The position numbers were made by a program, and so were the translations under genes. Shown piece by piece: positions 5,577 through 49,854 of a stretch of 64,000 nucleotides of DNA (within the stretch, counting starts at the first letter, position 1; the number at the start of each line of letters is the position of its first letter). The DNA is from Cyanobacteria bacterium P01_A01_bin.123. Its GTDB lineage: Bacteria; Cyanobacteriota; Cyanobacteriia; Phormidesmidales; Phormidesmidaceae. The notes beneath the pieces are model-generated. The model ran no database searches and was not told the DNA's origin. It saw only the letters and a program-made list of their open reading frames with translations. The stretch covers positions 1 through 64,000 of the forward strand of contig JBCBZT010000044.1 in the NCBI GenBank assembly GCA_039815185.1, written 5' to 3'.

Positions 5577-8500
5577 ATGTTTCTTAAGGATCAGCCCGTA
5601 TCTACTAAAGATAAAGACGAAAAATATATTTTTATCCATGATTTAAAGGCCAAATTAGCACATCATCATCAGCAAGAAGTTAGTCAGATTTCCGACGAAC
5701 AACTGGTGGAAACGTTGCTGCTAGATATGCCATCGGTTGAGGCTTGTACTGTTTTATCGCGACAATCTACCTCAGGGGCAACTGCGAAGATTGCCTACGT
5801 GGTTCTATCTGAACCTTTCTTTGCTGATCGGCTGCGAACTCATTTGCAGTCAGTTTTGCCCAATGAATGGGTACCTCAAAATTATGTTCCAGTCTCCACG
5901 CTACCGTTGACCGCAGATGGGAAAGTGGATAAAGCTGCTCTTGAGCAGCTTACCGTCATTGATGATGACCTAGTTGAAGATTGGGAAACCCAACTCAGCG
6001 CGATCGCAGAAGTTGATCAAGCTGCTGTGGTTATCCAACCCAGTTCAGGAGAGGAAGCGACGGTTCACATCTCCGATTTAATTCCTAACTGGAATCGCTT
6101 GCCTGAATCAGAATCAGACCCGCAAGTGGCGCTTGTTGAAGACGCTGATTTGTTGGAAGCTCAAAGCAGCTCTGATGCAGTAGGCTTGAGCTATGGAGGG
6201 GATTTGCCAACCGATCCAGAGGACATTAAAACCCTTCCTGCAATGCTGAAACGGGCTGCCCAAGTCCCTGGCGATCGCATCAGCTATCTACAAGCCGATG
6301 GCTCGGCGATGACCTGCTCGTATCGCGATCTGTTGGTAGAGGCTGAGTGCATTTTGGGTGGGCTTCGCCAACAAGGTTTAAAGCCTCAAGATAAAGTCAT
6401 TTTCCAACTCGAACTTAATCAAGATATCATCCCAGCTTTTTGGGCTTGCATTCTCGGTGGCTTTATCCCCGTCATTATGGGGGTGGCACCCACTTATAAA
6501 GAAGCCAACAGTGTTGTCGATAAGCTCTGCAATATCTGGAAGCTGATTGATCAGCCTCTGATCTTGACAACTGCTGGGTTACAAAACGCGCTGCAGAGCT
6601 TAACCCAGTGGCTACCAGCAACCGACCTGAAGGTGGCTGCGATTGAAACGTTGAGAACCCATGACCCCGATCAAACTCACCATGATTGTCAACCAGATGA
6701 TTTGACATTTTTCAATTTGACCTCGGGCAGTACAGGGATGCCCAAGTGTATTGGGTTAACCCATTGGAATTTGATTGCTCGGGCCAAGGGCACGAATCTC
6801 CTTTGTCACCACAACAAAGATGATGTAATTCTCAACTGGCTACCGTTTGATCATATCGGCAGCATTTCTGACTGGCACATTCGTTGCGTTTATTTAGCCT
6901 GTCAACTGGTCTATGCCTCAAAAGAGTATATTTTGGGACGTCCCTTAAACTGGATGGATCTACTGGCTCGTTACCGCATTACCCACAGTTGGGCTCCCAA
7001 TTTCGCCTATGCCCTAGTCAACGACAGCCTCAAGCAAGCGGCAGATCACACGTGGGATTTGAGCTGTGTAAAATCTCTACTGACGGCTGGTGAGGCGGTA
7101 TCCTCCAAAGCGGTAGAAAACTTTATTGAAAATCTATCGATCTATGGCTTTAAGAAAACAGCTGTGCGGCCCGCTTTTGGTATGGCTGAAATGGGTTCTG
7201 GAATTACCTATTTCCAGCCTACTGATGTACAGCCATTCCTGCGTCATGTGGTTGACAAAGCTTCGTTGAGCGGTGGTGGTTCGATTCGACGAGTTGATCC
7301 AGATCACCCCAACTGCTCAGTATTTACTGACTTAGGGCCAGTCATTCCAGGTGTATCTATCCGCATCGTCAATGCTCAAAGTGAGCTGCTACCAGAAGAT
7401 ACGGTTGGATATTTGCAAGTCAAAGGGGATGCCGTTTCCCCTGGATACTATAAAAATCCAGAAGTGAACAAAGAAGTTTTCTTGCCAGACGGTTGGTTTA
7501 ACACGGGTGACTTGGGTTTTATCTCTAACGGCCAACTGGTAGTGACGGGTCGGGCTAAAGAAACCATCATCATCAATGGAGCTAACTATTACAACCATGA
7601 AATCGAAGCCGTGGTTGAAACAGTAGATGGTGTTGAAGTTTCTTACACGGCTGCCTGTGCCGTTAGTGATGGTAGTGGGGCAACTGAGAAATTAGCGATT
7701 TTCTTCCATGCTGCTGACACTAGTGAAACGGCCCTGACACAGTTGATTCGGCAGGTGCGCCAAACTGTAGTGTCCAAAATCGCACTCAATCCAGATTATT
7801 TGATTCCTGTTGAGAAAGCTGCGGTGCCTAAAACGGCTATTGGCAAAATTCAGCGATCGCAACTTAGCAAGCGATTTGAAGCCGGTGAGTTTTCCTCCAT
7901 TGTCAAGCAGGTCGACTGCCTGCTCAAAAATTCAAATACCTTGCCCAATTGGTTTTTCCGTAAGGTCTGGCAGCCTCAGCAAGTCTCCACAGTTTCGGCT
8001 CAGGCTCAACCTGGCCCAACGCTAATTTTCTTGGATGACTTGGGTGTTGGGGCACAATTGGCTCAGATCTTAGGGACTCAAGGCTACGACTGTATTAGGG
8101 TTCAATTAGGCCCCGAATTTAAACAGACTGCCAGCTCAGGCTATCAAATTAACCCAGCCAACCCGGAAGACTATCGATGCCTGATCCGTGCTGTTGCCCA
8201 GACCCAAGGGCCCATTCGACAGGTTCTGCATCTCTGGTCATTAGCGGCACTGAAATCGCTATCTGCGGCTTCAGGTGACAGCAAAATGCATCAATGGCTG
8301 TATAGCGTGTTGTTCCTCATCCAAGCACTAGAGGCAGAACAACGCAATCCGCAACCTGTGCAGTGCTTGATTGGTGGCAATGCAGTCCAAAGCATTACTG
8401 GTGGTGATCCGGTTGTGGCTCAAAAAGCTACTGTATTGGGTCTGATTAAAACCGCTGCTCAAGAATTTGACTGGTTAGACTGTCGGCACATTGACCTGCC

Positions 8501-10835
8501 TGATGCATCAATTGCTGAACAGGTCAACTGGCTTCAGTATGAACTAGGCGTGAGTCAGTTTGAGCGTGAGGTGGTTTATCACAACGGCAAACGCTGGGTG
8601 CCTCGCTTCGAACCAGTGAACTGGGAAGATGGCCTTCAACCAGAACAGCCGTTTAAAGCTGGTGGTTTTTATGTGATCAGTGGAGGACTGGGTGGGGTTG
8701 GAACTGCGATCGCGCAGTATCTATTAGAATCCTTTGATGCCAAGTTACTTCTCCTGGGCCGAACTCCCCTGCCTGAACCCAAAACTTGGGAGCGTTACCT
8801 TGAAGGAAGCAACAACGCCCTATCCAATCGCATTCAAGCGTATCAGGCACTCACCCAGCTAGGGGAGATTCACTACGAAGCAGTCGATTTGAGAGATGCC
8901 TCCCGGCTAGAAGCAGTTGTTAAATCTTTAGAAGACCGTTGGCAGCAGCCCATGGACGGGATTCTGCATCTGGCAGGGGTTGCTTCAGAGCGATCGATTG
9001 TAGACGAAACCCAAGCCAGCTTCGCAGCAACACTTTCTCCTAAGCTTGAGGGAACAATTTCCCTGTCCCAATTGCTTAACCACCGACCCGAGAGTGTATT
9101 CATTAGCTTTTCATCAGTGAATGGGTTCTTTGGCGGTAACCAGACCAGTGCTTATGCTGCAGCTAATAGTTTCTTAGACGCTTTTCATCACACCTTGCGG
9201 CAGAAGAACAAGCGGCACAGCTATTGCCTAGCCTGGAGCATGTGGGATGACACTGGTATGAGCGACGGCTACCAGATGAAAGCGTTCTCTCGGGTTCAGG
9301 GTTACCATGCCATTTCGCAGCAGCGAGCGATTCAGTCCATGCTGGGCTGTCTTTATCATCAGATGGATCAGGTTTGGATTGGGTTAGATAGCAGTAAGCG
9401 CAATGTTCAACGCCACTTAAAGGCACCAACCGTACAGCTGCAAACCCTTGAAGCCTATCTAGTAACCCCAGAGGGTAACCCTAACCTGGCTCAGGTTAAT
9501 GTTTGTGATCGCTTTGGAACGCCATCTCAATGCGCATTTCATCAGCTCAATGAAATGCCCCGTACGGCAACTGGCGAGATTGATCGTGATCAGCTTGCCA
9601 GCTTTAGTCGAAGCACCACACAACAGGTGCAGCCCCGAAACGATTTAGAGCAGCAGTTGGTTCACCTCTGGCAAGAAATTTTGGGCGTTTCTCAAGTTGG
9701 TGTCCAAGATAGCTTCTTTGAGTTGGGTGGGTCTTCCCTACAAGCTGCGCGACTGTTTGCGGCGATTGATGAGAAATTTGGCAAAAATATGCCCCTGACT
9801 ACCCTGTTTACTGCCCAAACTGTTGAAAAACTGGCGAGTCTCTTAGGCTCTGAGGAAGACAATAGCCATTGGTCACCCCTAGTCCCGATTCAGCCGGAAG
9901 GCACCCAGCTACCGTTATTTTGTATTCATGGTGCGGGTGGCAATATTCTCATGTATCGAGAGCTTGTTGCCTACGTTGGCAAAGATCAGCCTTTGTACGG
10001 CTTACAAGCTGTTGGTTTAGACGGCGGGGCACCGATTACGCGTCTGCAAGAAATGGCTGAGATTTATATCAGTCACCTACGTGAGTTGCAGCCAGAAGGC
10101 CCTTACTTACTATTGGGGCTATCTGTTGGTGGCATGATTGCGGTAGAGATGGCCCATCAGCTGCGCCAACAGGGACAAGAGGTTGCTTTCTTGGGAATGA
10201 TTGATTCGCTGGGGCCTGGGTATCCCAAGCTAATGCCGGTTGTGCCGCGATTCTTTTCGCTATTGCCCTTTGCGCTGTCTCGCAATGTTCAGCGAATTCC
10301 AGTCTTCTTAAGCAAGAAACTTGGCCGAAAGCCTCGCCAGGCAGGTGGAACCGATCCGGTTGCTACTGGGGCGGTTGCCTCGGCAACTCCAAGGACTGAT
10401 TCGAAGCCAAACGCTCAATCTGCACCAGTTGTCGCCAGTTCACTGAGGTTCCCTTTGGGGTATCTAGAAACCCTAACCCTCTTGATGATCAAATACAGCC
10501 CCTGGGCGTTTGTGGTGCCGCGCTTCTATTTAGACAGCGGGCGGGCTATACCAGATAGTTTCCAAAAAGTTCAAGAAGCCACTGTTAAAGCGTTTCTGAA
10601 CTACAATCCGGAGCCCTATGATGGTGCGGCCACCTTGTTCCGAGCAGCGCAGCAACCCCCCGGTTGCTATCCTGATCCCACCTTGGGGTGGGGCAAGGTA
10701 ATCGGGAACTTAGACATCTATGACGTACCCGGACATCATGGTGAATCTCTTCTTTACGCGCAAAAGAGTCTGGAGGCCCTAGGGCCTCAGCTAAATACCT
10801 GTTTAAAGCAGACTCAAGCTCGACTTTGTCGATAA
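5577..10835 (+). CDS. Stand-alone NRPS-like synthetase: A (alpha-keto-acid type) - KR - PCP - TE
   Basis: A-domain motifs LTSGSTGMPK, NWLPFDHIG, FGMAE, GWFNTGDLG, GRAKE, PKTAIGKIQR. KR motifs ISGGLGGVG, HLAG, FSS, YAAAN. PCP FFELGGSSL. TE GLSVGG ... GMID ... PGHH. No C or KS domain. Confidence 0.9.
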   Translation: MFLKDQPVSTKDKDEKYIFIHDLKAKLAHHHQQEVSQISDEQLVETLLLDMPSVEACTVLSRQSTSGATAKIAYVVLSEPFFADRLRTHLQSVLPNEWVPQNYVPVSTLPLTADGKVDKAALEQLTVIDDDLVEDWETQLSAIAEVDQAAVVIQPSSGEEATVHISDLIPNWNRLPESESDPQVALVEDADLLEAQSSSDAVGLSYGGDLPTDPEDIKTLPAMLKRAAQVPGDRISYLQADGSAMTCSYRDLLVEAECILGGLRQQGLKPQDKVIFQLELNQDIIPAFWACILGGFIPVIMGVAPTYKEANSVVDKLCNIWKLIDQPLILTTAGLQNALQSLTQWLPATDLKVAAIETLRTHDPDQTHHDCQPDDLTFFNLTSGSTGMPKCIGLTHWNLIARAKGTNLLCHHNKDDVILNWLPFDHIGSISDWHIRCVYLACQLVYASKEYILGRPLNWMDLLARYRITHSWAPNFAYALVNDSLKQAADHTWDLSCVKSLLTAGEAVSSKAVENFIENLSIYGFKKTAVRPAFGMAEMGSGITYFQPTDVQPFLRHVVDKASLSGGGSIRRVDPDHPNCSVFTDLGPVIPGVSIRIVNAQSELLPEDTVGYLQVKGDAVSPGYYKNPEVNKEVFLPDGWFNTGDLGFISNGQLVVTGRAKETIIINGANYYNHEIEAVVETVDGVEVSYTAACAVSDGSGATEKLAIFFHAADTSETALTQLIRQVRQTVVSKIALNPDYLIPVEKAAVPKTAIGKIQRSQLSKRFEAGEFSSIVKQVDCLLKNSNTLPNWFFRKVWQPQQVSTVSAQAQPGPTLIFLDDLGVGAQLAQILGTQGYDCIRVQLGPEFKQTASSGYQINPANPEDYRCLIRAVAQTQGPIRQVLHLWSLAALKSLSAASGDSKMHQWLYSVLFLIQALEAEQRNPQPVQCLIGGNAVQSITGGDPVVAQKATVLGLIKTAAQEFDWLDCRHIDLPDASIAEQVNWLQYELGVSQFEREVVYHNGKRWVPRFEPVNWEDGLQPEQPFKAGGFYVISGGLGGVGTAIAQYLLESFDAKLLLLGRTPLPEPKTWERYLEGSNNALSNRIQAYQALTQLGEIHYEAVDLRDASRLEAVVKSLEDRWQQPMDGILHLAGVASERSIVDETQASFAATLSPKLEGTISLSQLLNHRPESVFISFSSVNGFFGGNQTSAYAAANSFLDAFHHTLRQKNKRHSYCLAWSMWDDTGMSDGYQMKAFSRVQGYHAISQQRAIQSMLGCLYHQMDQVWIGLDSSKRNVQRHLKAPTVQLQTLEAYLVTPEGNPNLAQVNVCDRFGTPSQCAFHQLNEMPRTATGEIDRDQLASFSRSTTQQVQPRNDLEQQLVHLWQEILGVSQVGVQDSFFELGGSSLQAARLFAAIDEKFGKNMPLTTLFTAQTVEKLASLLGSEEDNSHWSPLVPIQPEGTQLPLFCIHGAGGNILMYRELVAYVGKDQPLYGLQAVGLDGGAPITRLQEMAEIYISHLRELQPEGPYLLLGLSVGGMIAVEMAHQLRQQGQEVAFLGMIDSLGPGYPKLMPVVPRFFSLLPFALSRNVQRIPVFLSKKLGRKPRQAGGTDPVATGAVASATPRTDSKPNAQSAPVVASSLRFPLGYLETLTLLMIKYSPWAFVVPRFYLDSGRAIPDSFQKVQEATVKAFLNYNPEPYDGAATLFRAAQQPPGCYPDPTLGWGKVIGNLDIYDVPGHHGESLLYAQKSLEALGPQLNTCLKQTQARLCR

Positions 10836-10852
10836 TCTATGTGAAGAAACTT

Positions 10853-11953
10853 ATGTCAGCGAATACAAAACTACAACAAATCGATCAGGCTCTGATCGAC
10901 TTACTCAACCAGCGAATTACTCTACTGGCTGAAGCTGATGTCCTCGACAGACAGTGGCAGCTTGAGGCATCACAATCACAGCTAGCCCAGATGGGCGTTC
11001 CTGAATTTCTCTGGGAAAGTATTATTACCGGTTGCACCGCTGCCTTGGCAGAGATGCAACCAACTAGTCGGCAGTCTGCTATGCGCAAGATTATTCTAGT
11101 CGGTGGTCGCGGTATGATGGGGCAATTTTTTAATGCTCACCTCACTGCAGCAGGTCATGAAGTCAATATCTTGGACCGTAGTGACTGGCCAAATGCGGAT
11201 CAGATTGTCGCTGATGCAGATTTGGTTTTGCTGTGTGTCCCTCTGGACAAAACGATTTCAATCATTCAAAAATTAGCGCCCTACCTCTCGCCCCAAACCA
11301 TTTTGGCAGATATTGCTAGCATCAAAACGCCGGTGGTCAAAGCCATGCTAAAGGCACATCCAGGACCTGTCTTGGGACTCCATCCGATGTTTGGACCGGG
11401 AGTTGATTCGTTTCTCTCTCAAAAAATTGTAGTGTGCCCAGGTCGCGGTTATGATGCCTGTCGCTGGTTGCTTGACTTGATGACCCAAGAAGGGGGCGAT
11501 CTAATTACCTGCAAACCTGAAGAACATGATCAAATGATGATCACCGTTCAGGCCATTCGGCATTTTTCGACCTTTAGCCTGGGGGTGTTCTTGGCAGAGG
11601 AAGGGACCGATGTTAGCCGTAGCCTTGAGTTTGCCAGCCCGATTTATCGCATCGGCATTAATATGATTAGTCGACTATTTGCTCAAAATGGAGCTTTATA
11701 CGTAGATATTATGCTGGCTTCCAGCGAGTGCCGCGAGGCGATTTATCGTTTGTCTGAGACCTATCAGCGCCTCGCTACGTTGGTTGAGAAGAACGATCGA
11801 GCCGCTTTGGTTAATGAGTTTTCCCAGGCCCGTCAGAGCTTTGAACCCGGCGCTCCCCAAGCCCTGAAAGAGAGCAATCATCTGATTAATAGCCTCAGCA
11901 ACTTTTTGGCAGCTGATTCGATCGAGCATTGTCCTCACTATGCTTGTGCTTAA
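10853..11953 (+). CDS. tyrA: Bifunctional chorismate mutase / prephenate dehydrogenase (T-protein type)
   Basis: N-terminal CM-like helix (QIDQALIDLLNQR), Rossmann VGGRGMMG, DIASIK, GLHPMFGP, EEHDQMM..VQAIRHF. The ATG at 10853 lies 18 nt after the synthetase stop. Confidence 0.88.
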   Translation: MSANTKLQQIDQALIDLLNQRITLLAEADVLDRQWQLEASQSQLAQMGVPEFLWESIITGCTAALAEMQPTSRQSAMRKIILVGGRGMMGQFFNAHLTAAGHEVNILDRSDWPNADQIVADADLVLLCVPLDKTISIIQKLAPYLSPQTILADIASIKTPVVKAMLKAHPGPVLGLHPMFGPGVDSFLSQKIVVCPGRGYDACRWLLDLMTQEGGDLITCKPEEHDQMMITVQAIRHFSTFSLGVFLAEEGTDVSRSLEFASPIYRIGINMISRLFAQNGALYVDIMLASSECREAIYRLSETYQRLATLVEKNDRAALVNEFSQARQSFEPGAPQALKESNHLINSLSNFLAADSIEHCPHYACA

Positions 11954-27423: not shown

Positions 27424-29511
27424 TCATTCGTTTGAGGGGCAGAATGTCTTTTGAGAGGCGGAGTATAAAGAGGCAGCACGGTTAGATCGGTTACCGGCAG
27501 GTAGGCTGTCATATAAGTGACTTTCGTCTGCTCGGGTTTCTTTAAAAAAATATCTGAAGCGATGATTGCCTGTTCGTTCTCGAATGCCTGCAAAGGTAGC
27601 GTGGGCATCAACGACTTCGTAAATCGTTTCAAACTTACCAAATCGACCGACTGCATAAATGTACGCACCCAAAACTTCAGTGTAGCCTCCATTGAAGGTT
27701 CTGGCTTTGATGCCACCCTGTTCGGTTTTATGACCCAGTATCCAAAGAAAACCACCATCATTGCTAATGTTTTCGGGCGAGTTGGCAGGCTTTTCTGTAT
27801 TAAGCTGCCGAGCCCATATCTTGGCTTCAGGATGGTCAATGGATAGTTGGCCGGTGGCAATGCTGTTAAGGTAAATACCGCCTGGGCCTGAAGCTGTTAT
27901 CCGACCGGTTAGATTTTGCATTAATACGGTACGACTGGACGCATTTTCGTAGCCGATCTTAGTAAAATTAAAGCCCTGAAACTGGATAAAATCTGGGGCG
28001 GCAGGGTCATCTTTGATAGTAAACTGCCCTTTCCCAAGGATACGCGCTGGCGCGAAGCCAATAATATGTTGGAGACTTCCATGCAGCGTCACTTCGCCAT
28101 CCATGATGTACCAGTTCGGCTCGGGAGGTGTTCCCCCTGGAAAATATAGGGTAGTTTTACCCAGCTGTGCGGCAATGTCAACGGCGGCCTGGATAGTTTG
28201 TGTATCGTCAACTTTATCATTTGGATTGGCCCCAAAGTCTTTTACACTGAGCCAGTTATCTGAGTTAGGATCATATTGGGTTGGCAGATACCGAATCGGT
28301 AGGTTGGCTGAAGCGTTGATATTATCGGTGAAAGCTCTATCGACCCCATGGGAACTATATTCAGTGATGTTCTCTGTGGTCATGTTGAGGGTCTTACCTG
28401 CGAAACTTTTGAGGGCTTGTTTGTAGCCGCTAGTGCTAATATTGCGAGCGAAAAGAACCCCCCCGCTGATAATCGCGGGTTGGGAGGACTCACCCTCTAA
28501 GTGCCCATTGATTAAGGTCAGCGTTGTTTTATTGGAGTTCTGGGCTGGACGGGAGTAGACGGCAATGGGCGCATTCTCAACAGTCAGACCTTCAACCTGA
28601 AGTACGCCAGTACTATGATGGAGTCCGTAGGTACTTGCATCCCGAATCGCCAGGTTTGATAGGGTTGTGCTGTTAGCCCCGCTGGCTTTGACACCAATGG
28701 CAAATCCTTCAATTTCTAAGTTTTGAATCAGATGCGGCCCATTCAAATCGACAGACGACACGTCTAAGCCGATGGCACCATTGCCAATGATGCGAACGTT
28801 TTGCAGGATGCCTGTATTATTGCTGTGAAACTTTATCCCGACGGCACCTGGATTATCGCCTGTATCAATTGTGAGGTTAACGATAAAGCGGTTGAAGAAA
28901 TCAGCGCTAATATCTTTCCAGGTTGTCCCGTCATCGGCGTGAACCGTGCGCAAAACAGCTTGATCAGGTTGGTCAGCGTCACTGAAGCCAACGGCACGAT
29001 CATCTAATCTAAGAACCACGCCATCAATGCTTTGTCCATACATGTGGGGGGCGATAAAAAGAGCCCTACCGTTGGGTTGTTCGAAGCGAATTTCGCGAGT
29101 GACGCGATAAACCCCGTTTGGGAAGTATAGTGCTTTATTCTTACGAGCAGCTTCGTAAATAGCAGACTGAATGGCATCAGTATCATCTTTGCGACCATCT
29201 CCACTCGCGCCGAAGTCCTGAATATTAATTGCAATATCGGGATCTTCGGGCAGCACAATCTCAACTGCATCATTAAAGTTAACGGGGGACTGGCCATAAA
29301 TATTTTGGGCGGTTATGCTCCTGCTATTGCCCTCGGATAGGGGAATGTTTGCAAAACAATAATCAAGAGATATGGGCCCAGGCGGAGTGTATGGCCCAGG
29401 CCTACCTCCATTCCCTAGCATGCAGCCCGGCAAAATACCCATGGACAGGAGGGTTATCCCAGCTCTGAAAATGGTTTTAGAAATCCTGTTTGAAGCGGAA
29501 AAAAGGGTCAC
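27424..29511 (-). CDS. Pectate-lyase-3 / GH55-like beta-helix protein, possible lipoprotein
   Basis: Two 'xxDFGAxxDxxxDDTxxIQxA...LYFPxG' repeats. The N-terminal hydrophobic stretch ends in ILPGC (lipobox-like). GTG start uncertain. Confidence 0.78.
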   Translation of the reverse strand: MTLFSASNRISKTIFRAGITLLSMGILPGCMLGNGGRPGPYTPPGPISLDYCFANIPLSEGNSRSITAQNIYGQSPVNFNDAVEIVLPEDPDIAINIQDFGASGDGRKDDTDAIQSAIYEAARKNKALYFPNGVYRVTREIRFEQPNGRALFIAPHMYGQSIDGVVLRLDDRAVGFSDADQPDQAVLRTVHADDGTTWKDISADFFNRFIVNLTIDTGDNPGAVGIKFHSNNTGILQNVRIIGNGAIGLDVSSVDLNGPHLIQNLEIEGFAIGVKASGANSTTLSNLAIRDASTYGLHHSTGVLQVEGLTVENAPIAVYSRPAQNSNKTTLTLINGHLEGESSQPAIISGGVLFARNISTSGYKQALKSFAGKTLNMTTENITEYSSHGVDRAFTDNINASANLPIRYLPTQYDPNSDNWLSVKDFGANPNDKVDDTQTIQAAVDIAAQLGKTTLYFPGGTPPEPNWYIMDGEVTLHGSLQHIIGFAPARILGKGQFTIKDDPAAPDFIQFQGFNFTKIGYENASSRTVLMQNLTGRITASGPGGIYLNSIATGQLSIDHPEAKIWARQLNTEKPANSPENISNDGGFLWILGHKTEQGGIKARTFNGGYTEVLGAYIYAVGRFGKFETIYEVVDAHATFAGIRERTGNHRFRYFFKETRADESHLYDSLPAGNRSNRAASLYSASQKTFCPSNE

Positions 29512-29714
29512 AGTAGAGCGGATTAAGGCTAAAGCCTGTGGATTTAGAGTGAAGATGAGTCAATGTCCGAGAATGCATTGATTGCTGCGATCGCAAAAGC
29601 CTTGGTGCCTCCATTAACTTGTAGGAGAAGCTGCCAAACGAGACTGATCTGACCCTATTGTAGGCTCAACGATCTCTGAGCTCAAGTTTGCTTAAGCCTG
29701 AGTCGTCGGCAGAC

Positions 29715-31778
29715 TCACTGCCCAGTCAGTTCTAAGGTGGAGGCAGAGTAAAGGGATAGCCCTTTATTAAAGTCATTACCCGCAGGGACAGCAGACTCAG
29801 CTAATATTTCGGTTGTAGAATTTCTGGTTTCCCGTACAAAGTTTGGATACTTGGCTCTCGCTGTTCGTTCTCTGACCCCAGCAAAGGAAGCATCTGCATC
29901 AATAACCTCATAGATAGTGTCAAAGCTGCCTCTGCCGAGGGAGTAAATATAAGCACCTAAAATTTCGGTTCCACCTCCGTTTTGGGTAATGGACTTCAGC
30001 CCGCCATTCTCTGTTTTTTGCCCTAAAGTCCAGAGAGTACCCCCGTCATTAATGATGTTTTGATCGGTAGACCTTTCCGTATTAAGTTGTCGAGCCCAAA
30101 CCTTAGCATCAGGATTCTGAATCTGTAAGCTGCCGGCAAAACTGTTGATGAAAATATTACCCGAACCTGTGGCCGTAACATCACCGGTTGTATTTTCTAG
30201 CAACAAAGTGCGATTTGAGGCATTTTCATAGTCAATCCGCGTGAAGTTGAAGCCTTGAAATTGGACAACGGATGCACTGTCAACCTCATTTACCAACCTA
30301 AACCCACCCTCGCCTAGTATTCGAGCGGGTGCAAACCCAATCAAATGCTTCACGCTACCGTGAATATCAACAGTGCCATCAAGGGTATACCAGTTGGGAT
30401 CTTGAGATTTTTGCCCCGGAAAGTAAACCGTCGTTTTGCCCATGGTTGTAGCGGTATCAATCGCAGCTTGAATGGCGTCAGTGTCATCTACGTTGTCGCC
30501 GGGAAACGCCCCATACTCTGCAACACTCAGCCAATTAGAGGGGGTGGGATCGAAGGTCAGGGGCTGATAGCGAATGGGTAGATTTAGGGAGCGGTCGACG
30601 CTGCTATCAAACCCTTTGATAGTGCCGTGGGAACTGTATTCGTCAACAACTGCATCAGTGAAGTCGCCAGCGTTACCAGCATTGCCTTGAACAGCTTTGC
30701 CATAACCGTTTGTTGTAATGTTGCGTGCAAACAGTACGCCACCATTGATGATCGCAGGTTGGGATGAATTGCCACCGCTGAAGTTGCCGTTGACCAGAGT
30801 AAGCGTGGTGTATGCAACGTTGTTGATAGGTTTGGTAAAGACGGCGACTGGTGCATTTTCGACAGTAAGGCCTTCGACTTGGAGAACCTTAGCCGTATGA
30901 TAAATGCCATAGGAGCCTGCGTCTTTGACCATAATGTTAGAAAGTGTGCTGCTGTTCCCCCCCCCTGTGCGAACGCCAATATCAAACCCTTTGACTTCGA
31001 GATTTTGAATCAGGTGAGGGCCATTCAGGTCAACCGCATTGAGATCTAACCCGATAGAACCGTCCCCAATAATCCGAACGTTTCGTAGGATGCCAGTATT
31101 GTTGCTGTAAAACTTGATACCAGTTGCCCCCGGGTTATTGCCTGTATCGATGGTAAAGTTAACCAAGTAACGGTTAAAGAAATCAGCACTAACGCTGCGA
31201 AAATCTGTGCCATCTTCGACATTAATGGCACGGATAACAGCCCGTTTTGGATTATCTGGATCTTGAAACCCTGCCGCATTATCGTCTAATTTCAGCACTA
31301 CGCCCGCTTGACTCTGGCCATACAGATGGGGGCCAATATTCAGTGAGCCACCGTTGGCATTCTCAAGGCGAATTTCTTGGGTAACTCGATAAGTGCCATT
31401 GGGAAAATAAAGCGCTCGTCTCGATTCACCAGCTGCATAAATAGCATTTTGTATAGCCTGAGTGTCATCGGCGATGCCGTCACCTTGGGCGCCAAAGTCT
31501 CGAACGTTGATGACAATAGCCGGATCATCCGGGAAAACAATTTCGGCAGCATCTCCGAATTCGGTGGGAGCCTTCCCGTAAATCTTGTAGGCATCAAAGT
31601 CAACAGACCTGGGTGTAATGAGACCAGATTGTTTAGAGACAGCCGCTACAGCCATGACTTTGGCTTTGGAGAGGCTGTCTTGAATGTCTTCGACGATGTA
31701 ATCAAGCATATCAATACCTGTAGAGGTTGGCTTGAGGTTTGAGGTGTCGATGAGCGAGCTATCTGAATATCGCATCAA
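29715..31778 (-). CDS. Pectate-lyase-3 / GH55-like beta-helix protein (paralog of the adjacent gene)
   Basis: INVRDFGAQGDGIADDTQAIQNA..LYFPNGTY plus a second repeat. Shares SADFFNR, DLNGPHLIQNLE and WARQLNTE with its neighbour. Confidence 0.8.
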   Translation of the reverse strand: MMRYSDSSLIDTSNLKPTSTGIDMLDYIVEDIQDSLSKAKVMAVAAVSKQSGLITPRSVDFDAYKIYGKAPTEFGDAAEIVFPDDPAIVINVRDFGAQGDGIADDTQAIQNAIYAAGESRRALYFPNGTYRVTQEIRLENANGGSLNIGPHLYGQSQAGVVLKLDDNAAGFQDPDNPKRAVIRAINVEDGTDFRSVSADFFNRYLVNFTIDTGNNPGATGIKFYSNNTGILRNVRIIGDGSIGLDLNAVDLNGPHLIQNLEVKGFDIGVRTGGGNSSTLSNIMVKDAGSYGIYHTAKVLQVEGLTVENAPVAVFTKPINNVAYTTLTLVNGNFSGGNSSQPAIINGGVLFARNITTNGYGKAVQGNAGNAGDFTDAVVDEYSSHGTIKGFDSSVDRSLNLPIRYQPLTFDPTPSNWLSVAEYGAFPGDNVDDTDAIQAAIDTATTMGKTTVYFPGQKSQDPNWYTLDGTVDIHGSVKHLIGFAPARILGEGGFRLVNEVDSASVVQFQGFNFTRIDYENASNRTLLLENTTGDVTATGSGNIFINSFAGSLQIQNPDAKVWARQLNTERSTDQNIINDGGTLWTLGQKTENGGLKSITQNGGGTEILGAYIYSLGRGSFDTIYEVIDADASFAGVRERTARAKYPNFVRETRNSTTEILAESAVPAGNDFNKGLSLYSASTLELTGQ

Positions 31779-43479: not shown

Positions 43480-43630
43480 CCGCTGTCCGATGTCTCGCTG
43501 AATGGTACTCCAGGGGTACCCCAGACGGCTGAGCACAGCCCCAAAGGCACCTTCTACCGCGCTGGCCAGATTGCTCATGCACCTAGGTATCGCTGGGATA
43601 CTCAACACACAAGCAATCTGGTTCGCGGTA

Positions 43631-43670
43631 GCGCTCAGATTTTGTGGCTACAGCCACGAAATCTGAGTGT
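43631..43670. terminator. Long hairpin between convergent gltX and desaturase
   Basis: gcgctcagattttgtggct-ac-agccacgaaatctgagtgt. Confidence 0.65.
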
Positions 43671-43691: not shown

Positions 43692-44813
43692 CTAAGATGA
43701 CTGCGCTACACCGAATATTTGGGTTCGGGTGCGTTGATGGAACGCCTTAATCGATTGCAAACTATTTGAATCAGCATCCCATAGAATGAACTTAAAACAG
43801 TCAGGAATATCCCGAATTCGGAGCGTTTTTATATTGCCAAGCAGATGAATATTCCGGTCATGACACGCTCGGAGATTGTAATTTGGAATTCTTTCAGAGA
43901 GATGGTGAATATTGTGGTAGCCAATATCTGCCGCAAACCACATTAGAACGGTTGGTAATTTCAGATAGCTGCTGCCCTCTAGTGCGCCCAGTAAATAATC
44001 CCAACCTTCTGTTTTGTGGGCGTAAGATCCATCAAAATTATGCTGCACAAAAAAGACACAGATGAAGATCGCCGCGGCAAAGGTCAGAGAAATTGAGTAA
44101 ATGCTCCAAAATAAACCAACTCCCATAAGATGGCCAAGGTAGATCCAGAGACTGATCACGCATATATTGTTGAACAGCAAGTGCCAAAATTCGGCGCTGG
44201 TATACCAGTGTTTTGATTTGTAAGAGAGGACTATTTCTCGTAAACCCGTGGTGGGCTTTTTAAGCAAACAATTGAGCAGATGTTTTATAAACCCATAGCT
44301 CCCTAAAAAGAGAGCCATCCTTGGCTTAATCGCCAGGTAGAAAAAACCACCAGGGAAGATCATAACGGGATGCCTCAATATCCCGTAAAACCTTTGCCTC
44401 CAAGGACTTAACGCCGCAAACTCTTGAGTTGAAAGCAATGCGGAAGGCCCCCGATACTGATCCCAATCACCATTGGTTTTGTGATGGTAGGCGTGTCCTC
44501 TAGACCACGGATATTGAGGAATAGCGTTAATAACACCCAATGCAAAACCCACAATTCTGTTCACACTTTTTGCTCTAAAGAGGGAATAGTGTCCACAATC
44601 ATGCATCAAAGAAAAACAGCGGACTGCAAACAGCGTGATCAGAATCAGGATAGGGGGCAGTAGCCAAAATGAAATGGCAGCGGCCTTTGCGGCCAAAAAC
44701 CATAGGGCGATATAAGGTACAACGGTATTCAGGATTTGATAAGTCCCTCGAAAATCGTTGCTCTGCATGTAGGGAGCCAAGACAAAGTCTGACTTTTGGA
44801 TTTTAACTGTCAT
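43692..44813 (-). CDS. Membrane fatty acid desaturase
   Basis: His boxes HDCGH, HAYHH and HNIHH with hydrophobic segments; RIPNYNL. Confidence 0.88.
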   Translation of the reverse strand: MTVKIQKSDFVLAPYMQSNDFRGTYQILNTVVPYIALWFLAAKAAAISFWLLPPILILITLFAVRCFSLMHDCGHYSLFRAKSVNRIVGFALGVINAIPQYPWSRGHAYHHKTNGDWDQYRGPSALLSTQEFAALSPWRQRFYGILRHPVMIFPGGFFYLAIKPRMALFLGSYGFIKHLLNCLLKKPTTGLREIVLSYKSKHWYTSAEFWHLLFNNICVISLWIYLGHLMGVGLFWSIYSISLTFAAAIFICVFFVQHNFDGSYAHKTEGWDYLLGALEGSSYLKLPTVLMWFAADIGYHNIHHLSERIPNYNLRACHDRNIHLLGNIKTLRIRDIPDCFKFILWDADSNSLQSIKAFHQRTRTQIFGVAQSS

Positions 44814-44947
44814 TCAATGCCTTTTCCTAATAAATAATTTTCACTCCTATAAAACACTACACTAAATTCAATCATGGCATCAGCATATAGATAAGCTTGG
44901 CTAGCGATCGAAAAACATGTCCGAAAGATAATTGCATTGACTCAAAT

Positions 44948-44982
44948 AAAAAGGGGAGAAGCATTTGCTTCCCCCTTTTTTT
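44948..44982 (-). terminator. Rho-independent (bidirectional) terminator closing the AetD-like unit
   Basis: aaaaaggggagaagc-attt-gcttccccctttttt with A/T tracts on both sides, about 30 nt downstream of the O-methyltransferase stop. Confidence 0.8.
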
Positions 44983-45010
44983 CAACCGCAATGGGACTGC
45001 AGATAGGACG

Positions 45011-46258
45011 CTAATTGATTGGGCACCCCTCAATCACACTCACTGGAGATTGGGTATGTATCATCTGGGTCATCTCGAACCCTGCGGCTTGGAACATAGT
45101 GCTGTATTCTGCCTGTGTTCGTTCCCGTCCACCGGGATACATGACCAGCATTTGCAAATCTAGGAATTTAGCAAAGTGGGGTGAATTATCGGGTGGAACG
45201 ATGGTTTCGATCACCACAAGCTTGCCTTGGGGGGCGATCGCTTGGCGGACATTTTTCAAAATTTGCACACCTTCCTCGTCGCTCCAGTCATGCAAAATGC
45301 ACGACAGTACGTAGGCATCGCCCCCGGCTGGGACTGATTTGAAAAAGTCACCGCCTACCGTCTGGACGCGATCGCTCATGCCAGACTCAACCAACTGTGC
45401 TTGGGCTGAGTCCACTACATGGGGTTGGTCAAACAAGGTTCCCTTTGCTTGGGGGTTGCGGGCCAAAATTGAAGACAGCAACGCACCGTAGCCACCAGCC
45501 ACATCAATGACTTGCTGAAACGGTGAAAAATCATAATTATCCAGTACCGCCATGTAGACGCCCATGGCCCAGTTGCCCATCGCCTGGTTAAAGATTTCAC
45601 CCGACTCAGGGTTCTGCGCAAAATACTTGAACGTGTTGTCCACCTGGTACAACCGTTGCAGAGCAGCTTCCCCAGTTTGAACAATGTGTCGCAGTTCACC
45701 CCAAGAGCGCCAGTTCCACTCATCACCAAACATCATTGCCAAAGATCTCAAAGAACCTGGCGTGTCTTTGCAAAGAAAATTCGCCATTGGCGTCAAGGCA
45801 AAGCGCTTAGGTTCTACTTCGCTAAACACGCCGACGCTGGCTAACATTCGCAAGAGTCGATAAAGGTTCTGAGGTTGGGTCTGGGTCGCTTGGGCCAATT
45901 CATCAATGGATTTGCTCTCTGCCTGGAGGTGATCCGCAACTCCCAACCACGCTGCCACACTAATCGATTGGGAAATCCAGCTGCCAGTCAACATTTGAAT
46001 CAGCCCCATGGGAGAAGGCTCATTAGACGTTGGGGCGCTTGTGTCCACGGGCTGGGACGGCGCCATTTGATTAGCAATGTAATCAATGGTTTGCTGCCGC
46101 ACCCAACCCCGACTAGAAATCACTTCCCCCAGGCGCTGAGTCGTCTGCTTTTGCTCAGTTAAAGCAGTTTCGACCTGATCAGGGGTAAGTAAACCTGCCT
46201 CGACAAGACAAGTTCCAATTCGTTTGGGAACACGGGATGAATCGATAGCGATGGTCAT
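45011..46258 (-). CDS. Methyltransf_2-family O-methyltransferase with N-terminal MshEN-like domain
   Basis: RIGTCLVEAGLLTPDQVETALTEQ..RLGEVISSRGWV at the N-terminus, a dimerisation wHTH (LYRLLRMLASVGVF), IDVAGGYG, GGDFF, ILHDWSDE, GGRERT. The ATG at 46258 has GGAG upstream. Confidence 0.88.
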   Translation of the reverse strand: MTIAIDSSRVPKRIGTCLVEAGLLTPDQVETALTEQKQTTQRLGEVISSRGWVRQQTIDYIANQMAPSQPVDTSAPTSNEPSPMGLIQMLTGSWISQSISVAAWLGVADHLQAESKSIDELAQATQTQPQNLYRLLRMLASVGVFSEVEPKRFALTPMANFLCKDTPGSLRSLAMMFGDEWNWRSWGELRHIVQTGEAALQRLYQVDNTFKYFAQNPESGEIFNQAMGNWAMGVYMAVLDNYDFSPFQQVIDVAGGYGALLSSILARNPQAKGTLFDQPHVVDSAQAQLVESGMSDRVQTVGGDFFKSVPAGGDAYVLSCILHDWSDEEGVQILKNVRQAIAPQGKLVVIETIVPPDNSPHFAKFLDLQMLVMYPGGRERTQAEYSTMFQAAGFEMTQMIHTQSPVSVIEGCPIN

Positions 46259-46414
46259 ATTGCAATACTCCGTAATGGATAGGGGTAAGGAGATAAAGTG
46301 ATGGGGTAGTGGATGATCAGGGAGGTGGGAAGCACGTAGCCGGCGGGAACAGACATAGCTTACTCTCCTGCGCTTTTGCTCCCCTATTGCCAATGCTGGC
46401 GCCTCCCTTGACCC

Positions 46415-48133
46415 CTATCGCCCAATTAGCAAAGGTTGAGCTAAATCCGATTCCTTCCGGGTTGTGGCTCTGAACCGGGCAAGGTTGGCGACGTCGCGGC
46501 AGGCGCTCAAGTATGCCAAATCTGTTTCTAGAGAGATCGCATCCTGTTTTAGGTCTTGATCTTGAACGGCTAACGCGAGTTGCTCGCTGAGGAAGATTAG
46601 CAACGGTTCGATGTGAACCTGTTCGAGCCATTCCCCCATGATGTCTTCGATGATGTGGTATTCACACACTAAGGTGTCGCCACAGTAGCGCCGAATAATG
46701 GGGTGGAGGGCACCGCTACCGGCAGCATTGGCCACGTCGTCTTTGTTAACTCGGTTAATCGCAAAGGGATCAGCGCTGGCGTTGATTACGTCCAAACCAA
46801 ACTCTAAGGTGATGGTGTAGTAATGTGCGTGCTGTCCTAGTTCACTATCACGTACATAGTCTATCGGTATATCTTGATAGTACTGAGCTGCACCAAGGGT
46901 GCTACTTGATTCAGGCAGCACCAGCAAATCACAGAGAAAACCCGTTTGCTGCCATAATCCAGAGGTTATGTTGATCCGCTCGAGGATAGCCTTGGCTAAA
47001 TCCGCTGGAGTTGGGGCCACGGTTTGGTAGGGTATGGACTGGTGGTTATATTTTTGCGCCAAGATTTGGAATAGCGCTTTGATGTTATATCGGAAGCCGT
47101 GAATAAAGCCAGATTGCTTCTTCTTGAAGTCGCGCATGTGGGTCAGCACGCCGACAAAATAGAGATCTTGAATGTTGGTGGATTCCCAATCACTGGTCTG
47201 GGCTGGAAAGCGATCGTGAATCGTCAGTTCTGGCTTACAAGATCCATCGAAGATAGCATCGTCAAACTGAAAGCCGGTGCAGACAATCACGCGATCGTAG
47301 ACTAAGTCTTCTTCTTCACCGTTGGCGTGGGTGTACGCAAAGGTCACCACAAATTGTCCGTCTTCGCGGCGAATCTCCTTGACTGTGGCATCAAGGGCCA
47401 CATTTTGAGACTTGAGTTGATAGGTATCGAGCAAGTTATTGTTAACGGCCCGCAGGTGTCCCACATACTTGGTTTTCCAAGCCATGGAGATGGGATTTGG
47501 GCTAGCAATGTGTAGTAAAGCAGTGGTGCCCACCAGGCTGTCTGCTGTCTCAAATCCAGAATTGCCTTTGCCCAAAATCAACACGCGTTGGTTGGCATAA
47601 TCTTCTGGGTTAGTCGAAATCTCAGTATAGTTTTCAGCCAGTTCAATCCCTGGAACTTCAGGCACGTAGGGTTTAGAAAATCCGGTTGCAACGATCAGAC
47701 GCTTGGCTGAATAAACGGTGTCTTGATGGTCAATGACAACAAACTTGTCGCTTTTTGACACTTTGACGACTCGAGTATTGCATTTGATGTTGAGCTGATA
47801 GTAATCAGCAAAGTCATTCAAATAGCGTACTAAATCATCCGTATGGGGAAAATACTCGCGACTATAGTGCTTGAAACTCAAAGCCTCATTATCGCAGATC
47901 AAAGAATTCCAGTCCCACCGCAAGTTAACTTCTGGGTTAGAGTAGCCCGTGTAAACCTTGTTGATAGAAATTAGCTTGCGGTGCCGAGGGAATTTCTTGA
48001 AAAAGGTGCCTGGTGTATCGCCTGCTTCCAAAACGAGATAGTTGTAGCCAGCTTTCTCCAAGAAATAAGCTAACTGTAATCCAGCAGGGCCAGCACCAAT
48101 AATTAGGTAATCAAATTCAGTGGAAACGTTCAT
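46415..48133 (-). CDS. FAD/NAD(P)-dependent oxidoreductase, FOXRED2-like
   Basis: IIGAGPAG, FFKKFPRHRKLISINK..NLRWDWNSL, IVATG, ILGKGNSGFETA, YVGHLRAVNN.LLDTYQLKS, GFIHGFRY. Confidence 0.8.
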   Translation of the reverse strand: MNVSTEFDYLIIGAGPAGLQLAYFLEKAGYNYLVLEAGDTPGTFFKKFPRHRKLISINKVYTGYSNPEVNLRWDWNSLICDNEALSFKHYSREYFPHTDDLVRYLNDFADYYQLNIKCNTRVVKVSKSDKFVVIDHQDTVYSAKRLIVATGFSKPYVPEVPGIELAENYTEISTNPEDYANQRVLILGKGNSGFETADSLVGTTALLHIASPNPISMAWKTKYVGHLRAVNNNLLDTYQLKSQNVALDATVKEIRREDGQFVVTFAYTHANGEEEDLVYDRVIVCTGFQFDDAIFDGSCKPELTIHDRFPAQTSDWESTNIQDLYFVGVLTHMRDFKKKQSGFIHGFRYNIKALFQILAQKYNHQSIPYQTVAPTPADLAKAILERINITSGLWQQTGFLCDLLVLPESSSTLGAAQYYQDIPIDYVRDSELGQHAHYYTITLEFGLDVINASADPFAINRVNKDDVANAAGSGALHPIIRRYCGDTLVCEYHIIEDIMGEWLEQVHIEPLLIFLSEQLALAVQDQDLKQDAISLETDLAYLSACRDVANLARFRATTRKESDLAQPLLIGR

Positions 48134-48379
48134 GATGTAGTACTTAATTGTGCAAGACAGTATCGAAACCGAACCGCTGGGGCAAAGCGGGCGAGCTCAA
48201 ATCCTGAAAAGGGGCTAGATAGCCCATAAGTTCTGTCAGTAGGTAACCCATGGGCCTGAGCGATAGCAGTAGCCACAACATCTCGTGCGCAACGGCTAGT
48301 CAGATTGCTTGTAAACTAAGTTCTTTAGAGATACTCAGTGTATTAAGCAATCTGGCTAGTGCGACAAAACAAGGCTGGC

Positions 48380-49126
48380 CTAAACTGCAACCGGAACTTT
48401 TGCTGCTTTAGGCGCCTTGATGTAAGGGTTTTCGAGACTGTGGGTTTCGACGAAAGTCATCATTTCATGCACTACATCGGTAAAGGCATCAAAGACATTA
48501 GCCACCAGTTCACATGCTTTTTCACAGGTTGCGTCATCGAGCTCAATGCTTTCAATAAAGTCTTCTACGTTTTCAGTACCGATGGGATGTCCGGTTTCGA
48601 TATCGAAGTGCGATGGCCCAAAGTAGGGGTATCTAATCTGGGTGATCTGTTCAAGTTCACTGGCCACCTCAGCAGTTCTGCACAAAACGACGTGTCCTGT
48701 AGCTTCAACCGCTTCAGTAATCGCCAGCTTCAAACGTGAATCAGTTTGGGCGGTATACCACATGGCGAGTTTGGTACAGATCAGGCGAGCATGCTGGGTT
48801 TCATCACTCCACAAAAATTTCAGCGCTTCACTCAGGGGCAACGTATGATCTAAGCCGAGGCGAGTTAAATCTTGCAAATACCACAACCAGTGATGATCAT
48901 CTTCGTAGGTGTGGACATTAATCATTTCCTGGATTTGATTAGAGGGGGGTGTTTCCCTCAGGAAATACTTGTTTAAATCTCCGAAGTTCATGGCATAGGG
49001 AGCAATACAAGGCACAAATCCCAAGCGCTTATGGGGATGGATTGTCTTGTCTCTCATGAAATGAAACAGCGGCAGCTGTTCAAATTCATACTTTTTCACT
49101 TCAATAAACTCAAGAACTCGCTTCAT
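48380..49126 (-). CDS. AetD-like heme-oxygenase-fold diiron oxidase (HDO)
   Basis: Collinear by recall with aetokthonotoxin nitrile synthase AetD: F.RD.TI.P..RL...PCIA..A.NF.DLN.Y, IN.HT.ED..HW.W.L.DL, SEAL.F.WSD, EA.E..G, H...ETGH..GTEN. The ATG at 49126 has GGAG upstream. Confidence 0.82.
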   Translation of the reverse strand: MKRVLEFIEVKKYEFEQLPLFHFMRDKTIHPHKRLGFVPCIAPYAMNFGDLNKYFLRETPPSNQIQEMINVHTYEDDHHWLWYLQDLTRLGLDHTLPLSEALKFLWSDETQHARLICTKLAMWYTAQTDSRLKLAITEAVEATGHVVLCRTAEVASELEQITQIRYPYFGPSHFDIETGHPIGTENVEDFIESIELDDATCEKACELVANVFDAFTDVVHEMMTFVETHSLENPYIKAPKAAKVPVAV

Positions 49127-49854
49127 GGTGAAATCTCCACAACTTAGGAAACAGAAAACAGGCCACTTCAATCTGCCTACCTGAGACAGATTGCGGTGGG
49201 TTGCTATTCAGCATTAGCCAACAAAAAACTGCGCTCTTGAAATTCAGAACCCAAATAAAAGGAAATTCTGAATTTGAGACGTCAACAAAAACAACACTAG
49301 AGGACTCGGAAACTTAAATTTTCTAGGGAAACACTGAGGTATTGGTCGAGACCCTAGGAAAATTCAGTAGTTCAACGGTTTTCTTTAAGCCACCGAACTC
49401 TATAGCGACAATTTAGACTTTATGAGCCCTTAGCGTCAACCTGGCGGAAATACGTAACTTTAGCGGAACAAAAATAATTGAATCAGTTAATCTTTTCAGT
49501 GAGAACACTCTCTTCTAAACACTAGATTTTACATTCCTTAAAATAATTTTAAATAAACATGAAGTAGCTGCTAGGGCAGGCATCCAGCCATTTTGCTTTG
49601 GAGGGGAAAAGGTGTATTTACGTAGTCAAAAATTTGTTCTGCCAAATGAAGAACATTTTGAATATTTTGTCTCCAAAAATATAAGCTTTTATGCTTAGAT
49701 TCTGAGGACAACGATGCGGAAGTCTGGTGATCAATTCAGGGGATTTACGGATTGTTGTGATTCGGTGAGTTCCGTAAAGGTACTTAGATTTTTATGATTT
49801 GAGGTGTGCGCGAATTGGCGCAGATCCACTGCGCGCATTGGCGTACAGCAGGGT

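Follow-up and report, generated by a model that had tools for sequence, protein, structure and literature searches.

A FOXRED2-like flavoprotein occupies the halogenase slot in a cyanobacterial variant of the skt gene cluster

Introduction

What is made by a cluster of three minus-strand genes for a diiron oxidase, a flavoprotein and a methyltransferase, and in which order do the three enzymes act? The cluster lies in contig C44 of the 8.1-Mb assembly of Cyanobacteria bacterium P01_A01_bin.123 (GCA_039815185.1; JBCBZT010000044.1, positions 1 to 64,000); this whole stretch of 64,000 nucleotides is referred to as the window. Gene 1 (48380..49126) encodes a heme-oxygenase-like diiron oxidase (HDO) of 248 aa, gene 2 (46415..48133) a FOXRED2-like flavoprotein of 572 aa with two dinucleotide-binding domains, and gene 3 (45011..46258) an S-adenosylmethionine (SAM)-dependent methyltransferase of 415 aa, counted from the ATG. 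The open reading frames are separated by 246 bp (genes 1 and 2) and 156 bp (genes 2 and 3), in keeping with the three co-oriented genes and gaps of roughly 150–250 bp of the original prediction, and each gene is present in one copy in its own genome. That prediction, made from the sequence alone, had described an isolated orphan cluster in which the HDO converts an amino acid to a nitrile or other N-oxidized product, the flavoprotein oxidizes this product further and the methyltransferase caps it. As set out below, the cluster is instead a variant form of the skt cluster known from the literature, and its flavoprotein holds the place that a halogenase takes in related clusters.

The diiron oxidase and its relation to skt

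The HDO was aligned end to end with AetD (residues 1–233, E 1.5e-57), as had been expected; no Pfam or NCBIfam family was found for it. The iron ligands of AetD are D76, H79, E140, H172, E176 and H179, and its Y167 binds the substrate carboxylate (PMC11611611; PMC10654658). All six were mapped by alignment to D76, H79, E141, H173, E177 and H180 of the HDO, in agreement with the iron-ligand motifs noted earlier, and equivalents of Y167 (Y168) and F48 are retained. By this comparison, the HDO is assigned to the AetD/SktA family, with an intact site of three histidines and three carboxylates.

SktA, a homologue of AetD, converts (5-bromo)tryptophan to (bromo)skatole, cyanide and bicarbonate; in the skt cluster of Nostoc punctiforme NIES-2108 this skatole synthase is accompanied by the tryptophan halogenase SktB and the flavin monooxygenase (FMO) SktC (PMC11869266; Adak et al., 2025). 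The same skt cluster was recovered here as locus L037. The HDO is 46% identical to SktA, versus about 41% to AetD (95/233, counted by hand from the alignment), and has the same six ligands. As in skt, the HDO gene comes first and is directly followed by a gene for a flavoprotein of 530–570 aa, and relatives show the order HDO, FOXRED2-like gene, sktC, with the FOXRED2-like gene replacing sktB. Unlike in skt, neither sktB nor sktC stands beside the HDO gene, and nothing more SktC-like was found in the own genome than a partial match (28%) on a different contig; the FOXRED2-like gene and the gene for a methyltransferase with an MshEN motif are present in their stead. The cluster also differs from the aetokthonotoxin (AETX) cluster, having no aet P450, tryptophanase or canonical halogenase genes, and no PF04820 halogenase was detected anywhere in the genome. 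The earlier remark that the AETX enzymes are missing thus stands for these genes, with the reservation that the flavoprotein may itself be a halogenase.

A review has proposed from models that the pocket residues M139/A142/S214 of AetD and T139/T142/F214 of SktA discriminate the two enzymes, these not being tested determinants (PMC13108848). The HDO has V140/T143/F215, SktA-like at two of the three positions and with Val at the third, and the AetD triplet M/A/S was seen in none of the 168 aligned HDO relatives. On these sequence comparisons, the outcome of the HDO reaction is probably of the skatole type. Several observations weigh against this assignment. The HDO scores 198 bits against AetD, more than the 186 bits of SktA itself, and shares with AetD I41 and an ETGH-x-IGTEN loop after H180. 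Its pocket is changed at Y44, H145, V147 and L148. In a quick, midpoint-rooted tree that covered 101 of these 168 rows, in which AetD was not included, it fell outside the SktA clade, in a separate starred clade of 14 rows with two HDO–flavoprotein fusions. The bit scores, the stretches shared with AetD and the position outside the SktA clade would fit an HDO that is a nitrile synthase like AetD and forms (halo)indole-3-carbonitrile, irrespective of the role of the flavoprotein. Given the higher identity to SktA, the V/T/F triplet and the place of AetD as a singleton in the published network (PMC11869266), we consider nitrile formation unlikely. Of the earlier scheme, the small-molecule pathway acting on an amino acid is retained, and the nitrile gives way to the skatole and cyanide formed by SktA, the nearest system.

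Partners of the diiron oxidase in related loci

Gene neighbourhoods were surveyed from the HDO side in the best 80 of 92 GTDB relatives. The partner of the HDO was SktB in 36 loci, a second PF04820-family gene in 27 and a FOXRED2-like gene in nine (plus one locus with a remnant), and eight loci had none; no locus (0/80) carried two of the three partners together. The same alternation was seen in fixed surroundings. The 45 HDO loci with SktC carried SktB (35), a FOXRED2-like gene (5), the second halogenase (3) or none of them (2), and the 13 HDO loci beside ndhB carried a FOXRED2-like gene (8), SktB (4) or none (1). The flavoprotein occupies the halogenase slot of related clusters. In the HDO tree, flavoprotein partners were scattered and SktB-partnered HDOs were mostly nested within flavoprotein-partnered ones, a pattern that fits displacement.

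The survey was also run from the flavoprotein side. The flavoprotein was found in 49 of 251 Nostocales-family genomes and in four of 400 other genomes of a phylum sample, the three at 64–70% identity adjoining an HDO. Among 50 wide loci from the Nostocales-family search, 44 held an HDO (two of them remnants), 11 SktC, none SktB, one the second halogenase and 40 a sensor kinase. At the level of whole genomes (the same 251), one of the 24 with a full-length SktB-like gene (at least 73%) also has the flavoprotein, where 4.7 were expected, and in that single genome the locus is without an HDO. These counts are subject to qualifications that weaken them as evidence for a halogenase slot: the sets of 80 and 50 loci overlap and kin are not independent, and an HDO lay within the fetched stretch for only three of nine full-length SktB-like genes checked, so that the genome-level exclusion test is loose. 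A scan of 38 metagenome loci yielded no close relative and no trio.

Analogy of position makes the flavoprotein a candidate single-component tryptophan halogenase of an uncharacterized family, acting before the HDO, a reading to which we give slightly better than even credence. It would most likely precede the HDO, contrary to the earlier proposal that it oxidizes the HDO product. Its other partners, too, are ones that accompany known tryptophan halogenases. The 251 genomes contain two PrnB genes, each directly behind a flavoprotein gene, and PrnA is the enzyme that halogenates tryptophan for PrnB (PMC11791213). In L228 the flavoprotein is paired with a tryptophanase, in parallel to the pairing of AetF with AetE (PMC10654658). 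IDO follows the flavoprotein in two loci (L194, L198), and P0079 is a fusion of both; L306 mirrors this pairing with the order HDO–IDO–SktB. A Na+/H+ exchanger is encoded near the flavoprotein in L127, L161 and L190 and fused to it in P0085. An exchanger of this family comes after SktB in L079, adjoins the tryptophan chlorinase ClaH (claH–claT) (PMC3158105) and occurs in the chloramphenicol cluster (PMC4249514). Fusions of the flavoprotein to an AMP ligase and acyl carrier protein (ACP; P0070, P0074) suggest that some family members act on tethered substrates.

Not all partners speak for halogenation. L225 carries a PF04820 gene and the flavoprotein beside a split PrnB and is ambiguous, being either prnABC-like with two halogenases or a halogenase with a reductase. 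PrnB, IDO, P450 and HDO, moreover, all require electrons, which a reductase could supply. The flavoprotein might accordingly be a dedicated NADPH-dependent reductase that restores the ferrous diiron centre here and the hemes of PrnB, IDO and P450 elsewhere. Most partners are indeed iron enzymes requiring electrons, HDO and flavoprotein are fused in 13 of 122 proteins checked, and the best fold match is a disulfide reductase, YpdA/Bdr, with many matches of the thioredoxin reductase (TrxR) and FNR type. A dedicated reductase is, on the other hand, hard to reconcile with the 71 of 80 HDO loci that have no intact flavoprotein copy, and it predicts neither the exclusion by halogenases nor the links to tryptophanase, antiporter and AMP ligase–ACP. 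The flavoprotein has no redox CxxC, and no more than 14 of 138 family members have one; YpdA- and FNR-type reductases work without it, and its lack is compatible with reductase function. This reading is judged rather unlikely.

Further partner combinations were recorded in the surveyed loci. Cyanobacterial PrnB homologues lie behind a FOXRED2-like gene in L223 (4554–7800) and L225 (3829–9134, in two frames), resembling a pyrrolnitrin-like branch without PrnA. In L229 and L230 (5974–13524) a FOXRED2-like gene heads an operon with genes for an amidohydrolase, a radical SAM protein, an ATP-grasp protein, a pyridoxal phosphate-dependent decarboxylase and a methyltransferase, an undescribed-looking pathway. 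HDOs stand with an aromatic prenyltransferase, a cytokinin-dehydrogenase-like flavoprotein and shikimate-pathway genes in L072 (7001–8844), L064 (7001–9440) and L117 (4737–9211).

Sequence and structure of the flavoprotein

The flavoprotein matched Pyr_redox_3 (E 2e-53), and its ESM Atlas neighbours include clusters of chordate FOXRED2 (FAD-dependent oxidoreductase domain-containing protein 2; feature score 0.98–0.99). Unlike the animal protein, it is bacterial and encoded in small-molecule clusters. A structure model built with a 138-row alignment (predicted local distance difference test, pLDDT, 94) has GxGxxG motifs at residues 13 and 188 and a two-dinucleotide fold of the group-B FMO type. 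The core resembles YpdA and type II FMOs (Z 32.0 and 31.1), and an extra C-terminal domain, barely probed by the fold searches, is attached to it. AetF, which has a group-B FMO-type fold, halogenates with NADPH alone (PMC10306068). The flavoprotein is like AetF and Bmp5 in its two dinucleotide-binding domains, extra C-terminal domain, absence of WxWxI and conserved lysines (K59 in 124/132 and K241 in 129/138 family members, possible counterparts of AetF Lys258). It is unlike them in sequence, no match being found at E 0.001, and neither AetF nor Bmp5 was among its top 50 fold matches, which does not exclude kinship.

Further points count against a halogenase. The canonical motifs WxWxI and FxxPxxSxG (PMC13519999) and PF04820 are absent from the flavoprotein, although Bmp5 likewise does without the canonical motifs. 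The match to YpdA/Bdr (Z 32.0, root mean square deviation 2.7, 313 residues aligned) is the best obtained, and type II FMOs and N-hydroxylases are found among the further top matches. Judged from the model, the structure does not decide the reaction.

Bacterial FOXRED2-like proteins are numerous (4097 at E <= 1e-100 among 8000 scored). No match to the flavoprotein was detected in 201 genomes of another phylum; outside cyanobacteria the family was represented by two plasmid-collection records, fusion proteins and Atlas clusters. We know of no reaction assigned to animal FOXRED2 or to the bacterial FOXRED2-like proteins. In the literature covered, from which most subscription journals are missing, neither FOXRED2-like proteins as halogenases nor FOXRED2 in bacterial biosynthetic gene clusters were found. 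Aetokthonos hydrillicola, the AETX producer, encodes a FOXRED2-like protein (P0246) with 66% identity.

The methyltransferase

Gene 3 matched Methyltransf_2, and its product has the dimerization domain, a DxGGGxG-like SAM motif, GDFF and HDW. Its N-terminus matched the cyclic di-GMP (c-di-GMP) motif NF053729 with 54.3 bits (cut-off, 38). The consensus of the MshEN c-di-GMP receptor is a tandem 24-residue RLGxxL..GL...LxxxLxxQ motif (PMC5013675). Residues 13–65 (46064..46222, minus strand) are like this receptor in comprising a near-consensus 24-residue first repeat, a 5-residue linker and a second repeat, and unlike it in that the second repeat is degenerate. The carrier of the motif varies among genomes, being the HDO, the flavoprotein, a fusion or the methyltransferase. 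Such roving suggests that control of the cassette by c-di-GMP has been selected for.

Relatives of the methyltransferase were matched in 53 genomes, and 20 loci were widened; an HDO was adjacent in four of the five best and in none of the next 15. Within the own family of the genome, HDO and methyltransferase occur alone in L145, L146, L151 and L154, with another FMO in L147, L148 and L150, and with P450s in L153. The trio of gene types recurs in three of the 50 flavoprotein loci: L234 (order unchanged, a P450 following), L203 (order changed, a P450 present) and L076/L224 (36%, with SktC). The methyltransferase is a genuine partner, though one that can be exchanged, and it occurs independently of the flavoprotein. 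Of the conserved trio looked for by the original prediction, the unit of HDO and flavoprotein is upheld.

These pairings bear on the scheme nearest to that prediction, in which the flavoprotein would be a monooxygenase that hydroxylates the indole, on its ring or at N1, and the methyltransferase would cap the hydroxyl to give methoxy-skatole or methoxy-indole. The resemblance in fold to type II FMOs and N-hydroxylases is in its favour, as is the lack of any other oxygenase in this cluster. Close methyltransferases nevertheless accompany an HDO without a flavoprotein or oxygenase gene in the four loci with HDO and methyltransferase alone and in L271, L272, L274 and L275, which argues against hydroxylation followed by capping and makes the indole itself the likelier site of methylation. 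This methyltransferase family was found in only three of the 44 HDO-linked flavoprotein loci, two of which (L203, L234) also carry a P450, and the antiporter link is left unexplained. Hydroxylation by the flavoprotein is thus considered unlikely.

HDO and O-methyltransferase-family pairs without an oxygenase would also be accounted for by tyrosine as the substrate, as would the altered pocket of the HDO (Y44, H145); halogenation and Calpha–Cbeta cleavage would then yield (halo)p-cresol, and O-methylation (halo)methylanisole. The partners in relatives are specific for tryptophan (SktB, PrnB, IDO, tryptophanase, and anthranilate synthase in L153), and the methyltransferase family includes N-methyltransferases, so that we regard a tyrosine pathway as quite improbable. 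The best solved relative of the methyltransferase is 6c5b, which we take to be the phenazine O-methyltransferase LaPhzM, a relative that would suit the capping of a hydroxyl; DtpM and RedM, reported as N-methyltransferases, are also among its solved relatives.

Proposed pathway

A tryptophan pathway of the skt type with a different first enzyme would bring these observations together, and as a whole explanation it is put forward tentatively, with somewhat less than even confidence. In the first step, free tryptophan would be halogenated by the flavoprotein with NADPH, FAD, O2 and halide, the part played by SktB in skt. The HDO would then take the amino-acid end of the product at Fe1, activate O2 and cleave the Calpha–Cbeta bond like SktA, releasing (halo)skatole, cyanide and bicarbonate. 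Finally, the methyltransferase might add a methyl group, probably at the indole N1 because its closest relatives accompany HDOs without an oxygenase, and the MshEN motif may gate this step by c-di-GMP. The end product would be a small lipophilic indole.

The wider proposal is that bacterial FOXRED2-like proteins are widespread, unrecognized single-component flavin halogenases with no sequence relationship to PrnA/SktB or AetF, and that the cluster makes a previously undescribed methylated halo-skatole under c-di-GMP control; it would give animal FOXRED2 a first reaction to be tested. We consider it a serious possibility that falls a little short of an even chance. If it holds, a large family annotated as 'thioredoxin reductase' or 'NAD(P)-binding domain protein' would form a new class of halogenases that motif-based mining misses and that roughly one in five of the sampled Nostocales genomes carries. 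Its members would be useful as reductase-free biocatalysts and relatives of a human protein to which no known reaction is assigned. The skatole/cyanide-type chemistry of HDOs would also widen to a cassette in which the first and the last enzyme can be exchanged, linked to sensor kinases and c-di-GMP. The present gene arrangement was not found in the accessible parts of the literature on SktA and skatole.

Signal or toxin

The original prediction had suggested a new signal or toxin. Kinase-family genes were found in 68 of the 80 HDO loci and, as noted, in 40 of the 50 flavoprotein loci, mostly as a large Ser/Thr kinase–AAA–GAF–His kinase facing the cluster. Together with the MshEN motifs, the flanking kinases of relatives suggest a signal molecule. 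Two points tell against extending this to the present cluster: no such sensor kinase stands beside it, and such kinases are abundant, with matches on 34 contigs of its own genome. No support for a toxin was found, beyond the cyanide co-product of SktA-type chemistry, and the signal is the more likely of the two. The facing kinase (in most of L001–L080 and L191–L240) is a candidate receptor for the product.

Other features of the locus

The trio ends at an intrinsic-terminator-like hairpin and T-run at 44948..44982 (minus strand; hairpin core 44954–44975, 9 pairs), the site predicted earlier. With its flanking A/T runs (within 44940–45010) the hairpin has a folding energy of −26.2 kcal/mol. Terminator-like sites in the region numbered 9, versus 6.6 ± 2.6 in shuffled sequences, so that this hairpin stands out by position and strength only. 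Upstream of the HDO gene, the AT-rich region 49127..49854 (39.7% GC, no own open reading frame of more than 46 aa) is the presumed promoter region; sigma-70-like promoter matches within it were not above shuffled-sequence chance.

The desaturase gene (43692–44813) and the ZIP gene were considered as cluster members and rejected, the former lying beyond the terminator and the latter 728 bp upstream. Their relatives in other genomes had no cluster gene within about 1.5 kb, in accord with the unrelated surroundings noted originally.

The spacer between the HDO and flavoprotein genes contains a palindromic dispersed repeat of about 110 bp with a long hairpin (48256..48372), similar to a miniature inverted-repeat transposable element or repetitive extragenic palindrome. 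Searches with blastn gave 179 matches in the genome, 143 of them of at least 80 bp, and copies were found in a same-genus genome too. Placed after the HDO stop codon, the hairpin could set the ratio of HDO to flavoprotein transcript. A partial copy lies near 43608–43656 of the window.

Elsewhere in the window, 34–5151 encodes a protein of 1705 aa that combines FG-GAP repeats with a tyrosinase domain. At 5577–11953, a single AMP-binding/KR/ACP/thioesterase protein heads a sulfotransferase/glycosyltransferase polysaccharide locus, with a prephenate dehydrogenase next in line. A tandem pair of pectate-lyase-like paralogues of about 690 aa each is found at 27424–31778.

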